DNA of 64,000 nucleotides from Deferribacterales bacterium (lineage in GTDB: Bacteria > Chrysiogenota > Deferribacteres > Deferribacterales > Geovibrionaceae). Made by a program: the position numbers and the translations under genes. Under the pieces are notes generated by a model that was not told the origin of the DNA, made no database searches, and worked only from the letters and a program-made list of their open reading frames with translations. The stretch is from contig JBFWJS010000007.1 of NCBI GenBank assembly GCA_050253075.1, forward strand, positions 64,001 through 128,000, given 5' to 3'. This document shows positions 2,196-36,147 of the stretch, in pieces; the stretch's first letter is position 1, and each line of letters opens with the position of its first letter.

Positions 2196-3413
2196 GTGAA
2201 TACACTCATAGTCGGCTCAAACTATCTGGCTCTTAATTTTTACAGCAGTTTCTTCGAAATGATGGGGCTCGAAAACGAACACTACACATCCATTCAGGTG
2301 GGGCTGAAACGCCTTACGCTGAATCCTGATATAGTCAACGTTGTCATACTGATAGACAACAAAGACGACTTCGCAAACTATACAAGACAGCAGCATGCGC
2401 TCGACACAAAGCAGTATCACATAATCTTCATATGCAAAAGCGAAGAGCTGATGAGCATGGTGGCGGGCAGGGGTGTGCTGGTCTTCAACCATAAAGAAGT
2501 GATAGAATACCTCGCAAAGCCTCTGGTAAAGCATGAGATATGCGCTGCGAGCATTCTGGGCGGAGCGAAAAAGATAAGACCCGAAGAGACGCTGAAACAC
2601 ATCCAGAACATGCTTATCAAAAACAAGATAACACTGCCGATAAAGAACGAGTGCGCCATGCGTATGATGTCTATTCTGGAGGACGACAATGTCTCCTTCA
2701 AGACTATAGACCAGATATCAAAATCCGACCCTGTGCTTCACTCGGGTATTATAAAGATGGCAAACTCTGTCTATTTCAGCGGAGCTTTCAGCAATGTCAC
2801 TGACCTTGAAAAGGCTCTGGTGCGTGTGGGCACCGCAAATGTTAAGACATACCTTATCAACTATGTGAACAAGTCGCTCGCTTCAAACAAAGACCTCATC
2901 TTTACCGAAGAGATCAATGAGTGTGTGGACAGCTCTCTTATGACGGCGTCCCTTTGCTTTGCCATGGCGGAGACGTTCAAGGTATCATCACCGGTGACAA
3001 TGTTTTCCATCGGGCTGATGAGCAGCATGGGAGAGATCTTCATGTATGCTGCTCTGTCGGATTATTTCGCCGCATCTGAATTTGACCGTTCCACAATGGG
3101 CGACTACATACTGCTGACAAAGAATGCGGGGCTTATGATAGGGTCAAAACTGCTTCAGAAATGGAAGATGGCTGACGACTATGTTATGCCTATCGCAAGC
3201 ACAAAGAGCCTGTCAGCCAATAAATTTATGAAAGAGACGAGGATACTGCACCTCGCTCTGAATATGCACGAATACGTCAAAACAAAGCAGATAGACGCAA
3301 ACCTTGAGAGCGCCATGAGCAACACTCAGGTACAGATAAGTCTGCCCGCTCTGGAAAAGATAGATCAGGATGCCGCAAAGCACCTCAGCATTATCAAGTC
3401 TGTGCTGAGCTAG
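2196..3413 (+). CDS. HDOD domain-containing signal transduction protein
   Basis: TLP...DPVLHSGIIKMANSVYF...LEKALVRVG and LLQKWKM match HDOD; N-terminal region unassigned. Confidence 0.8.
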   Translation: MNTLIVGSNYLALNFYSSFFEMMGLENEHYTSIQVGLKRLTLNPDIVNVVILIDNKDDFANYTRQQHALDTKQYHIIFICKSEELMSMVAGRGVLVFNHKEVIEYLAKPLVKHEICAASILGGAKKIRPEETLKHIQNMLIKNKITLPIKNECAMRMMSILEDDNVSFKTIDQISKSDPVLHSGIIKMANSVYFSGAFSNVTDLEKALVRVGTANVKTYLINYVNKSLASNKDLIFTEEINECVDSSLMTASLCFAMAETFKVSSPVTMFSIGLMSSMGEIFMYAALSDYFAASEFDRSTMGDYILLTKNAGLMIGSKLLQKWKMADDYVMPIASTKSLSANKFMKETRILHLALNMHEYVKTKQIDANLESAMSNTQVQISLPALEKIDQDAAKHLSIIKSVLS

Positions 3414-3613
3414 CCCTTTCTTATCTCTGTGACAGTCTTTCCGCCTATGCCGTAGCTGTCGGTATCGACTTCGTTTATGGTTATCACCATAGTTTTTTCC
3501 CCTCTGCCGAATGTATCGACAAATACCTTTGTGAAGCCTTCGATGAGAGCCTTTTTCTGTTCGGGTGTTGCGCCCCCGTCCTCTTTTGTCATTATCAGGT
3601 TAAGTAACGGCAT
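3410..3613 (-). CDS. 4-oxalocrotonate tautomerase family protein
   Basis: Catalytic Pro1 (MP), TPEQKKALI, EVDTDSYGIGG, 67 aa. Confidence 0.9.
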   Translation of the reverse strand: MPLLNLIMTKEDGGATPEQKKALIEGFTKVFVDTFGRGEKTMVITINEVDTDSYGIGGKTVTEIRKG

Positions 3614-4742
3614 GGTGTTCTCCTTTTTTTATTATGAATGTTATCAGCCCGCCGAGAGCCGCCGCAGATGCCGCCATCAAAACAGGCAGGTCGAACCCCC
3701 CTGTGCTGTAGGCTATATATCCGGCGATCAGCGGACCTATCATCTGTCCTATGCTGAAGAAAACTGTCAATACTGATGTAGTTGTTCCGCCGGGGCTTAT
3801 CTGTCTGCCGTATGCCAGCGTTAACGATACTATCCCGAGGAATGTACCTCCGAAACCGACAGCGCCGAGCATTGTCGGCGTCAGCCCGCTGAATACCACA
3901 GGCAGTGCTATGGATACCGCCTGCATGGCAAAGGCGTATATCATGGCGTTTGCCACCCCTGTACGTTTCGCCAGCATAGCCCATAGCGGTGTTATAAGGA
4001 CTGCTCCCAGCCCTGCTATTACCCAGACATACCCTGAAAGCATAACGGAGCCTGTGCCCCTCAGCACTATCACAGACATAAATGTACCGGTGATAATGTA
4101 GCCCGCACCTTCCAGAAGATATGCTGCTGAGAGCAGATATATTAATCTATTTACGTTTTTAGACGTTTTCGGCACGTCTCTGCCTGCCGTATGGGGCTTC
4201 GGCGTGAGAAAGACTGCAAAGAAGGCGGGAAGCAGGCTAAGACCTGCGAGCCACAGCCAGATCTCTGATGAATTAAAGTATTTTGAAAGGATGGGAACAG
4301 TGAGACCCGAAAGGACCATCCCCCCGCCGATTCCGCTGTATATCATACCGCCGAGCTGAGGCCTCTGCAGCCTAGCCAGATAGTCCATGATGAACTCTGC
4401 ACTCATTACAAATACAACTGCGGATAAAAATCCCGATATAAACCGCACAGTATACCAGAGAGGATATGAGTGAATATACATAACCCCCACCAGCAAGAGG
4501 CTGAGCGGTATTGATGCTATGAAAAACGGATAGGCACGCTTTGTCACCGACAGATATCTGGCATAAAATGCACCGAGCAGATATCCCAGATAGTTCACTG
4601 ATGCCAGAGCACCCGAGACAGTGTCCGAAAAGTGAAAGTCCCCCTGCATAAGCGGGAGTATAGGGGTGAATGCGAACCTCGCAACGCCCATAGCCAGAAA
4701 GAGTGCCGATGCACCGCCGAGCAGTGCCAGTAATATTTTCAT
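3600..4742 (-). CDS. YbfB/YjiJ-family MFS transporter
   Basis: AMGVARFAFTPILPLM, ASVNYLGYLLGA, EGAGYII; about 12 hydrophobic segments. Confidence 0.9.
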   Translation of the reverse strand: MKILLALLGGASALFLAMGVARFAFTPILPLMQGDFHFSDTVSGALASVNYLGYLLGAFYARYLSVTKRAYPFFIASIPLSLLLVGVMYIHSYPLWYTVRFISGFLSAVVFVMSAEFIMDYLARLQRPQLGGMIYSGIGGGMVLSGLTVPILSKYFNSSEIWLWLAGLSLLPAFFAVFLTPKPHTAGRDVPKTSKNVNRLIYLLSAAYLLEGAGYIITGTFMSVIVLRGTGSVMLSGYVWVIAGLGAVLITPLWAMLAKRTGVANAMIYAFAMQAVSIALPVVFSGLTPTMLGAVGFGGTFLGIVSLTLAYGRQISPGGTTTSVLTVFFSIGQMIGPLIAGYIAYSTGGFDLPVLMAASAAALGGLITFIIKKGEHHAVT

Positions 4743-33743: not shown

Positions 33744-33983
33744 CTAGTGCGATATTATCTTGAATATTATAAAGAATAACACCACAAGGAAGGCGGCTAT
33801 CTTTGCCTTGCCTATCATGCGTGAATTCAGCTTTATTGGCTGCGGTCCGTAGAAGTCTTCCTCTTTCATCCCCTGCTGCTGATAGTCAAAGCTCTTGAAC
33901 ATATACTGACAGCCGGGACATGCATTGAACTCGTCCGGCGTAACGTTGCTTCCGCACTCAGGGCATCTTATGGTCTTTTCCAT
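33744..33983 (-). CDS. Zinc-ribbon membrane protein (hypothetical)
   Basis: CPECG...CPGC, C-terminal TM; AGGAG RBS. Confidence 0.65.
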   Translation of the reverse strand: MEKTIRCPECGSNVTPDEFNACPGCQYMFKSFDYQQQGMKEEDFYGPQPIKLNSRMIGKAKIAAFLVVLFFIIFKIISH

Positions 33984-34047: not shown

Positions 34048-35352
34048 TTATCCCTTTGCTTTCAAAAACAAAAAGCCTGTCGTGCCCGCCACGAGAGAAG
34101 CTATCAGGATACCCAGTTTCGCTGTTTGCGCATCTTCGGGGCTGAATGCCATGCCGGATATGAATATCGACATGGTGAGACCTATCCCTGAGAGTATCGC
34201 AGCGCCCAGAAGCCGGCTTCTGTTTATCTCTTCGGGTATGGTTATCATCTTTATCTTTTCAGCGACCAGTACAAAGAGCATGATGCCGACAGGCTTGCCG
34301 AGTATCAGTCCGAATATGATGCCGAGGCTGATGGGTGAGCCTACGCCAGAGAATGCGTCTCCGCTGAGTATCAGCCCTGTGTTTGCAAATGCGAATATGG
34401 GCATGATGAGAAAGGCGGATATGCCGTGAAGGTTGTATTCCAGCCTGCTCATAGGGTTATAAGCAGAGAGTGATGCGTGTATTATCTTGTTGAATATATG
34501 CTTCTGACACTTTGTGGGGATCTCGCTGTCAGGGTTGTTTGTACAGTGTTTCAGCTCTGTCATGAATATACCTATGGATTTGTTGAATGTCATAAGCGGT
34601 ATTCTGGGCTGGCTGGGGATGAAAAATGCGAGGATAACGCCCGCAACGGTGGCATGTACGCCTGATTTCAGGAAGAAGTACCATAAAATCAGCCCGACGA
34701 TAAGGTACACCAGGATAGACTTTACATTTGCAATGTTCATTATGGCGAGGATGACTATCACGACACCCGCATACATAAGGTAAGACATTGCGATGCTGTT
34801 TGTATAGAAGAGGGCGATGACAACGACAGCGATGATGTCGTCCACCACGGCCAGCGATGTAAGGAATATCTTAAGCTGTATAGGCACTCTGTCGCCCAGC
34901 ATAGCCATGATGCCTATGGCAAAGGCGATGTCTGTCGCCATGGGGACTCCCCATCCGGAGAGGTTGCCGTTCTTCATATTGATAACCGTGTAGATAAGGG
35001 CAGGGACGATAGCTCCGCCCAGCGCCGCTATTATCGGGAGCAGAGCCTTGCGCATGGAGGACAGCTCTCCGATGAGAACCTCCCGTTTTATCTCCAGACC
35101 TATCATCAGGAAGAATATTGCCATGAGTCCGTCGTTTATCCAGTATATGAAAGGCTTAAATAGGGACAGAATGCCGAAGGTAAATCCGACCTCCATCTTC
35201 CACAGAGCCTCATACCACCCGGCATATGCGGAGTTAGCTATTATCATAGCGAGAACCATAGCCCCGAGCATGATGATACTACTTGAGGACTGCTTTTTCA
35301 GGAACTGGTTAAAAGGGTCAACGGTGAATGATTTAATAGTATTTATAGTCAT
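34048..35352 (-). CDS. nhaA: Na+/H+ antiporter NhaA
   Basis: WINDGLMAIFF...GLEIKRE, PMATDIAFA, LAVVDD, SGVHATVAG, GKPVGI. Confidence 0.96.
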   Translation of the reverse strand: MTINTIKSFTVDPFNQFLKKQSSSSIIMLGAMVLAMIIANSAYAGWYEALWKMEVGFTFGILSLFKPFIYWINDGLMAIFFLMIGLEIKREVLIGELSSMRKALLPIIAALGGAIVPALIYTVINMKNGNLSGWGVPMATDIAFAIGIMAMLGDRVPIQLKIFLTSLAVVDDIIAVVVIALFYTNSIAMSYLMYAGVVIVILAIMNIANVKSILVYLIVGLILWYFFLKSGVHATVAGVILAFFIPSQPRIPLMTFNKSIGIFMTELKHCTNNPDSEIPTKCQKHIFNKIIHASLSAYNPMSRLEYNLHGISAFLIMPIFAFANTGLILSGDAFSGVGSPISLGIIFGLILGKPVGIMLFVLVAEKIKMITIPEEINRSRLLGAAILSGIGLTMSIFISGMAFSPEDAQTAKLGILIASLVAGTTGFLFLKAKG

Positions 35353-35354
35353 GG

Positions 35355-35492
35355 TTATTTATACCATACCTTTCTGTCTCTGACAGCCGCAGGTACTAAA
35401 TTACCGTTGTTTCTTTCTCTCGGTTTGAGCTTGATAACGGCAGGTCTGCCGCCTTTTATCCTGTCTAGGATAGATTTGATAAAGTCTTTCAC
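35355..35492 (-). CDS. 45-aa basic small protein between the riboswitch and nhaA
   Basis: GGAGGT RBS, GTG start, MKDFIKSILDRIKGGRPAVIKLKPRERNNGNLVPAAVRDRKVWYK; stop 2 nt before the nhaA ATG. Confidence 0.65.
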   Translation of the reverse strand: MKDFIKSILDRIKGGRPAVIKLKPRERNNGNLVPAAVRDRKVWYK

Positions 35493-35526
35493 TATTACCT
35501 CCAGTGTTTTGTGCTGTAGAGGTAAT

Positions 35527-35571
35527 AAAAAAACCTTTACCCACAGCACGGTATTATGCTTGGATAAAGGT
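35527..35571 (-). terminator. Riboswitch expression-platform terminator
   Basis: ACCTTTATCCAAGCA...TGCTGTGGGTAAAGGT followed by a T-run; the 5' arm is the 3' strand of aptamer P1. Confidence 0.85.
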
Positions 35572-35666
35572 CTTGCAAATTTCGTATTAACGAAGCTCCG
35601 GATCCGGGTTTTAACACCGTAATGACGAATCCGAACCGCATAAATGCGGATGCTACTCCCCTTTAC
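35564..35666 (-). ncRNA. yybP-ykoY (Mn2+) riboswitch aptamer
   Basis: GTAAAGGGGAGTAGC...CGTCATTACGG...CCGG...GCAAGACCTTTAT matches the hallmark segments; TTGACT-16-TATTAT promoter upstream. Confidence 0.9.
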
Positions 35667-35721
35667 TTCTTAGATGGATAATAATTATATTACGTTCAAA
35701 GTCAAGGATTATCGGAAAAAA

Positions 35722-36147
35722 TCAGTGTGCTGCAAGCCATTCTTCCACACGGGATTTTATCGTATCTCTTATCTCACGCACCCCTGCGAGGATGACTGCG
35801 TCTGTGCCTTTCAGCTTTGCAGGGTCTTTTACATCCCACTGAACAGTATCGAGTATATCGGGGAAGATGGGGCATCTCTCTGCAGATGTCTGGTCGCACA
35901 CTTTAAACACGTAATAATACATGCGCCCCTCACGGAAATAGTCTATCACAAGGTCTGTGGTGTTGTTTGAGATGTCTATGCCGACCTCGGCCATAGCTTT
36001 CACCACGAAAGGATTAAGGGGCTGCTGCTCCAGACCTGCGCTCTCTGCGGTGTATCGCCCGCCTGACAGGTGGTTCATGAACGCCTGCGCCATCTGGCTT
36101 CGTCCGCTGTTATGCTCACACACGAATAACACTTTCTTTGTTTCCAT
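35722..36147 (-). CDS. arsC: Arsenate reductase, LMW-PTP type
   Basis: VLFVCEHNSGRSQMA, VC......CP.FP, W...DP. Confidence 0.85.
   Translation of the reverse strand: METKKVLFVCEHNSGRSQMAQAFMNHLSGGRYTAESAGLEQQPLNPFVVKAMAEVGIDISNNTTDLVIDYFREGRMYYYVFKVCDQTSAERCPIFPDILDTVQWDVKDPAKLKGTDAVILAGVREIRDTIKSRVEEWLAAH

Follow-up and report, generated by a model that had tools for sequence, protein, structure and literature searches.

A 64,000-nucleotide stretch of a Deferribacterales genome (contig JBFWJS010000007.1, positions 64,001 to 128,000), hereafter the window, carries an nhaA gene on its minus strand, preceded by a structured leader and a small open reading frame (ORF). The preliminary description of this DNA, made from its letters alone, had read the arrangement as a yybP-ykoY (Mn2+-class) riboswitch controlling a 45-aa microprotein and the Na+/H+ antiporter NhaA. 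We found the listed parts where that description had placed them, all on the minus strand: a promoter-like site, the aptamer motifs, a hairpin, a GGAGGT-GTG small ORF and a 2-nt gap before nhaA. The features are as follows.

35678..35705, minus strand: sigma70-type promoter candidate, with -35 element TTGACT (35705-35700), -10 element TATTAT (35683-35678), a 16-nt spacer and 10/12 consensus matches
35565..35665, minus strand: yybP-ykoY aptamer with a four-way junction, assigned from its RF00080 match, folds and covariation
35665-35660 paired with 35570-35565, minus strand: helix P1 with L1, from the fold
35649-35636, 35635-35597 and 35594-35581, minus strand: helices P2, P3 and P4, from the fold
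35619..35625, minus strand: L3 loop UCAUUAC, exactly the L3 of E. coli alx
35623, minus strand: L3 adenosine A35623, which corresponds to the Mn2+-coordinating adenosine A41 of L. lactis and A37 of alx
35527..35571, minus strand: switch hairpin (about -21 kcal/mol) with seven U behind it, a candidate intrinsic terminator
35493..35527, minus strand: anti-Shine-Dalgarno (anti-SD) segment (35527-35511) and Shine-Dalgarno (SD) sequence GGAGGT (35502-35497)
35355..35492, minus strand: 45-codon ORF with a GTG start, separated by 2 nt from the nhaA ATG at 35352
34048..35352, minus strand: nhaA, encoding a 434-aa Na+/H+ antiporter (PF06965, TIGR00773, alignment to E. coli NhaA)

Upstream of this unit, an ArsC/LMW-phosphatase-like gene (35722-36147, minus strand) ends 17 nt before the promoter. 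No terminator was listed there, so read-through from that gene into the leader is possible. Directly after nhaA comes a gene (33744-33983, minus strand) for a zinc-ribbon protein of 79 aa that has a hydrophobic C-terminal segment. Neither flanking gene is a constant neighbor: the ArsC-like gene is not beside the nhaA unit in relatives, and the zinc-ribbon gene is not conserved beside nhaA in four of them. The whole region holds seven promoter-like sites against 5.2 expected; because this count is near expectation, support for the promoter candidate rests on the TTGAC element, which is invariant in all five related leaders described below, with TAT likewise conserved in all five. The preliminary description had named an internal promoter for nhaA as a refuting observation; the promoter scan returned no second promoter-like site between the leader and the gene.

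NhaA passes its family models (PF06965 at 469 bits; TIGR00773 at 414 bits against a cut-off of 254), and its residues T140, D141, D171, D172 and K353 align with T132, D133, D163, D164 and K300 of E. coli NhaA, which we take to be the canonical ion-site residues. The nearest named proteins are Denitrovibrio, Deferribacter and Deferribacterales records at 64-66%. By these measures the protein appears to be a canonical Na+/H+ antiporter, with no sign of changed substrate. An insert of about 50 residues (249-298) and the key motifs are common to orthologues with and without the riboswitch. Within this insert, most Deferribacterota NhaA proteins carry the motif C-x-N-N-P-D-S-E-I-P-T-K-C, with S/E instead in a few, possibly a metal or redox site. 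The preliminary description had suggested an NhaA paralogue with changed specificity. We abandon that suggestion: nhaA is the only copy in each of the five riboswitch-bearing genomes and is therefore not a paralogue, and the canonical ion-binding residues are in place. All five genomes also carry mntP, and no riboswitch lies close to that gene, an oddity if the RNA senses Mn; none of the five has a Mrp antiporter as judged by a match to MrpE.

Across 68 genomes of the phylum, nhaA occurs in 11, and in five of these the RNA lies directly upstream: the window genome (G000), G002 and G003, which form one genus, and G008 and G013, from another genus of the same family. The proposed link between riboswitch and nhaA is thus conserved in four other genomes, and the RNA-nhaA unit sits among unrelated neighbors in four settings. 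No RNA precedes nhaA in the other six, namely G022 and G038 (NhaA 64-65% identical) and four genomes with a 50%-identical NhaA. The last four (G006, G012, G014 and G015) belong to genus g4 together with G008 and G013, whose 64%-identical nhaA genes carry the RNA and lie at different loci, a pattern that hints at gene replacement or transfer.

Predicted folding of the leader is unusually stable (z = -5.34; equal stability in 0 of 200 shuffles), and a four-way junction was obtained for the leader RNA when P1 was enforced. The yybP-ykoY family is defined, in the parts of PMC6649816 covered here, by the P1-P4/L1/L3 layout and an L3 C-A whose adenosine N7 binds Mn2+. These elements are all present. 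L1 has GGAG on the 5' side and AAGA on the 3' side of P1, invariant in the five leaders except for AAGA/GAGA; P3 carries L3 with its C-A, the adenosine being A35623; the metal core is invariant in all five; and all three motifs quoted in the preliminary description are found in the aptamer on the minus strand.

The Rfam check proposed in the preliminary description gave a divided result: of the Rfam models RF00080 fits the leader best (E = 3e-5 for 391 nt), but its 25.5 bits fall below the 45-bit gathering cut-off, and Rfam at gathering threshold returned no match over the window. The leader is also the sole RF00080 match in its source genome. This low score says little either way, because only 2 of 14 control genomes have a match above the RF00080 cut-off, and because the alignment leaves the 3' strand of the leader's P1 unmodelled. 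Run with stricter filters on 41 relatives, RF00080 gave two matches, with none of the five nhaA leaders among them, and an E-value Rfam scan of 14 loci returned an FMN riboswitch only. In G003, the Mn-type leader lies just downstream of a ribB-like gene that has an FMN riboswitch (L006 256-400, 107.9 bits) in front of it.

Covariation also supports the fold. In the five nhaA leaders, an alignment of kin that are not independent and that was fitted to the model, 92.9% of cells pair, with two-sided changes at 8 of 31 pairs and none of 500 shuffles as high. P2 in this set is a 4-bp helix with 95% of cells paired and two pairs showing two-sided change. In 27 related leaders, a set we selected (five from nhaA loci and 22 of 52 metagenome loci), the share of paired cells is 79.4% and two-sided changes occur at 22 of 32 pairs, values higher than in all 500 shuffles and every slid control. 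The leaders of G008 and G013 differ at 3 of 175 positions, at a synonymous divergence of 0.6 in nhaA, and the aptamer is unchanged in the three other holders that cover it. The class assignment made in the preliminary description is borne out by the four-way junction, the L1/L3 core and this covariation: judged from sequence, the leader is a genuine four-way-junction yybP-ykoY (Mn2+) class aptamer, and Mn2+ binding is predicted.

The expression platform is predicted to compete for P1: the 5' arm of the switch hairpin is the 3' strand of P1, the ON-switch geometry described previously. A simple terminator scan did not list this hairpin (35571-35527), which was found by folding. The hairpin's other arm, on the 3' side (35549-35537), is predicted to act as the anti-anti-SD: an SD-hiding hairpin is predicted for the OFF state and an arm/anti-SD helix for the ON state. 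The same helix relay is predicted in G002, G003, G008 and G013, and each of the five leaders has a P1 3' strand predicted to pair with the downstream arm, at -14.6 to -21.2 kcal/mol. In each of the five leaders the downstream stretch outperforms 98.8-100% of 2000 shuffles in pairing with both the arm and the SD, figures that overstate the case because we chose the windows and because the arm and the SD have sequence in common. At equilibrium, the region after P1 favors the SD-closed fold, by 4-6 kcal/mol in every one of the five; the ON state must therefore arise kinetically, through co-transcriptional folding. The alx and mntP riboswitches also require co-transcriptional folding according to the portion of PMC12153347 covered here. 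The preliminary description had named a terminator as the output. The window genome does have a candidate, but a U7 tract after the arm hairpin is found only there; the tract is weaker in G008 and G013, and G002 and G003 have none. The conserved output is therefore predicted to be SD sequestration, with a clear terminator U-tract confined to the window genome.

The 45-codon ORF that follows is probably translated. Its SD pairing is predicted at -10.7 kcal/mol versus -5.2 for nhaA; its codon score, at the 40th percentile for gene starts, exceeds those of 97.7% of 6992 intergenic frames; and such an ORF arises in 0.14% of 5000 gap shuffles. Of three other holders whose sequence spans it, two show differences, one silent and one missense change, and none has a frameshift. 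Its simplest role, and a likely one given this arrangement, would be to couple translation to nhaA. G008 and G013 have a 53-codon ORF in the same position, overlapping the nhaA start by one base (a stop-start overlap). Between these two genomes its dN/dS is 0.069 (11 synonymous and 4 non-synonymous changes; Fisher p = 3.5e-6), compared with 0.053 for nhaA, and by this comparison the 53-aa ORF is under purifying selection. No ORF occurs at this place in G002 or G003. The small ORF is thus optional, being different or missing in related loci.

Whether these peptides form a family bears on the earlier proposal of a partner protein. Alignment of the 45-aa and 53-aa sequences is no better than shuffles (p = 0.55-0.79); remote kinship is nevertheless conceivable, because both have a charge of +9, lack a membrane segment and carry an amphipathic helix at the N terminus. 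Beyond its own variants, the 45-aa ORF has no homologue in the 68 genomes, a 5.8-billion set, the ESM Atlas, Pfam or NCBIfam; a 1.84-billion set likewise contained none, one hit there being a 3343-aa repeat protein. We also considered the small ORF as a terC remnant or an N-terminal piece of NhaA and found no support for either. Of the earlier proposal, probable translation of the ORF stands; a general partner fits poorly, the ORF being missing in two of the five loci and replaced in two others by one not detectably related to it. That the small protein is a true NhaA partner or regulator, co-induced with it, accordingly strikes us as doubtful: the 53-aa ORF is constrained much as nhaA is, and the shared charge, helix and similar SD context of the two ORFs favor it, while the lack of any such ORF in G002 and G003, the shuffle-level alignment and the failure to find further homologues weigh against it.

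A model of the RNA, R1, matched 19 of the 68 genomes (58 candidates scored per genome): the five nhaA loci, 13 CaCA loci and one weak case. This survey of downstream genes, suggested in the preliminary description, placed the CaCA loci in 13 genomes of another family (f7; L220-L232), where a yybP-ykoY RNA and terminator precede a CaCA (Na_Ca_ex) exchanger gene; in the example locus L032, the RNA spans 562-665 and the gene 719-1972. The weak match in G043 (L233, about 1500-1581; 24.7 bits) has the 5' core and a P1-like pair with altered L3 and 3' L1, and may be a variant or chance. A pattern match in G006 (L029) was rejected because it lacks P1 and was not scored by R1.

Scanning metagenomes for this aptamer subtype yielded 52 loci, 35 before TerC genes, 16 before P-type ATPase genes, one before a CitMHS-type gene and none before nhaA; these labels come from BLAST to four representatives, of which Pfam confirmed one TerC and the CitMHS, the other two labels being our reading. 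The single CitMHS-type case, L135, has a four-way-junction RNA with an alx-type L3 (2495-2602) before a gene for a 422-aa CitMHS/IT-family transporter (2664-3932). By aptamer and switch hairpin, the closest leaders outside the clade sit before terC genes, which suggests that the nhaA leader was recruited from a terC-type leader. A move from the genomes' own TerC genes found no support, which resemble the TerC type that follows the closest leaders at just 23-27%. Among distant nhaA loci (38-48% identity), a yybP-like pattern occurred in 0 of 80, 14 of which were also searched with R1 and gave no match; a search of the leader against plasmids gave no match, and sequencing runs yielded no RNA holder. 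We found no yybP-ykoY RNA paired with nhaA in the parts of the literature covered, including PMC10197570, PMC7266159, PMC8546581, PMC9337991, PMC9943018, PMC5737381, PMC2211319 and one supplement of PMC13594968; tables in Dambach 2015, Price 2015, Zeinert 2018 and Meyer 2011 may list the pairing.

The leader shares its P1-P4 junction, L1 GGAG...AAGA, L3 adenosine and use of the P1 3' strand as the switch with the RF00080 riboswitches of L. lactis yoaB, of X. oryzae and of E. coli mntP. It differs from them in having a Na+/H+ antiporter as target rather than a Mn exporter, an alx-type L3 and an optional small ORF. S. pneumoniae mgtA also places a terminator just 5' of the ribosome-binding site and is turned ON by Mn2+, but has a three-way junction and a P-type ATPase target. 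Leaders upstream of Na+/H+ antiporter genes are otherwise represented by the nhaA-I, nhaA-II and DUF1646 (Na+-I) RNAs, a group associated with Li+ sensing, whose structures are unrelated to this one; their Rfam models gave no match at gathering in the window, nor at E up to 10 in the leader. For the same group of alkali-ion RNAs, Na+ sensing is described in the sections of PMC9337991 covered here.

The closest likeness in detail is to the E. coli alx riboswitch (pH-responsive element), which has the same UCAUUAC L3 and a platform with terminator and SD control. Unlike our leaders, alx is a three-way junction in which an L2 loop serves as the cap, and its target is a TerC exporter; that architecture is absent here, where P2 is a covarying helix. 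According to the portions covered of Palmer et al. (10.64898/2026.02.18.706685; PMC13594968), the alx L3 is found in 3% of Rfam members and is required for alkaline activation; the three-way junction and L2 loop are required as well, and the alx L3 placed in mntP gave no pH response. We found UCAUUAC in G000 and G002 and UCAGUAC in G003, G008 and G013. Among the 52 metagenome leaders, which were picked by the pattern UCA[GU]UAC so that loop counts are not frequencies, 16 have UCAUUAC, 12 of them with a predicted P2 hairpin and 15 before TerC or ATPase genes. The alx-type L3 is therefore a lead and not proof, given the P2 helix, UCAGUAC in three of five leaders and the occurrence of the loop before TerC and ATPase genes.

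These observations bear on the reading in which the aptamer itself is pH-gated like alx, alkaline pH sensitizing it to low Mn2+ so that it acts as a direct alkaline sensor for the antiporter. Agreement of the loop in G000 and G002, a U at the first L3 base of all five leaders (the position proposed to matter in the part of PMC12153347 covered) and a regulated gene suited to pH homeostasis speak for it, but the covarying P2 helix, the mntP graft of Palmer et al., the UCAGUAC loops and the gene context of 15 of the 16 metagenome UCAUUAC leaders point the other way, and we regard it as unlikely. An indirect route is available. From the same part of PMC12153347, alx senses a Mn rise brought by alkaline pH, and from that covered of PMC9603457, Mn stress alkalinizes the E. 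coli cytoplasm; on either account Mn2+ would be a useful cue for a proton-importing antiporter. We infer that this indirect route, with Mn2+ as the alkaline cue, is better supported than direct pH gating. A bolder version, which we hold only tentatively although a little less skeptically than alx-like gating by itself, is that the four-way-junction aptamer is an alkaline-pH-gated Mn2+ sensor driving proton import by NhaA, a feedback loop without a protein regulator in which the alx three-way junction would be dispensable and the basic amphipathic peptide may also tune NhaA.

Two further readings place the novelty in the transporter or in the ligand. The Bordetella BP3410 leader likewise joins a Mn riboswitch to a gene whose annotation is that of a cation antiporter (CaCA), the pairing also seen in the 13 f7 genomes, and the Bordetella protein exports Mn2+ despite that annotation (in the portion of PMC8546581 covered). 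By this precedent, and with 51 of the 52 close leaders before TerC or P-type ATPase genes, NhaA might export Mn2+ or another divalent cation; yet NhaA has a different fold, its canonical Na+ site residues are all kept, its key motifs and insert do not differ between orthologues that have the riboswitch and those that lack it, mntP is present in all five genomes, and no title among the papers listed for NhaA and Mn2+ efflux shows such a case. This is the least probable of the readings, to be entertained only as a long shot. Slightly less remote, though still improbable, is that a leader taken over from a terC-type gene now detects a different ion, or has been retained only as a promoter carrying a tuning structure. 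The terC genes behind its closest outside relatives agree with capture, and the covered part of PMC7266159 notes that variants with other metal specificity are suspected in the class. Changed sensing, however, sits poorly with the invariant metal core, the near-identity of the G008 and G013 leaders against the divergence of their nhaA genes, and the unaltered aptamer of the three other holders.

We consider it somewhat more probable than its negation that the leader is a Mn2+-triggered ON switch for a canonical nhaA, with Mn2+ likely a proxy for alkaline stress. Under this model, in the absence of Mn2+ the P1 3' strand would pair with the downstream arm; in the window genome the resulting hairpin would end transcription at the U7 tract, and in any read-through RNA the free anti-SD would pair with the Shine-Dalgarno sequence. 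With Mn2+ bound, P1 would hold, the arm would pair with the anti-SD and the SD would stay open. Ribosomes would then translate the 45-codon ORF and likely re-initiate on nhaA, as its weak SD and a start 2 nt after the ORF suggest. The Na+/H+ antiporter would thereby be made when cytoplasmic Mn2+ rises. The missing Mrp match in all five genomes fits this model; the sub-threshold Rfam score, the equilibrium preference for the SD-closed fold, the missing U-tract of G002 and G003, the six nhaA genes without such a leader, the riboswitch-free mntP and the suspected metal variants of the class weigh against it. The anatomy, its conservation and covariation and the canonical NhaA residues are observed; the ligand, the switching, the coupling and the physiological reason are our interpretation of them.

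The leader is thus a genuine member of a known riboswitch class with an unusual, conserved target, nhaA, and an optional small ORF. The reason for the tie between this Mn2+ class and alkaline pH has been under debate ever since the first description of alx. Because the known targets are metal exporters, a Mn sensor and an alkaline sensor are hard to separate by gene context; a riboswitch before a plain Na+/H+ antiporter, with a riboswitch-free mntP in the same genomes, separates the two readings. The five leaders form a natural test set, combining a four-way junction that bears the alx-type L3, two variants of L3, and the presence or absence of the U-tract and of the small ORF. Should they prove alkaline-gated, yybP-ykoY RNAs could act as alkaline-stress sensors without the three-way junction of alx.
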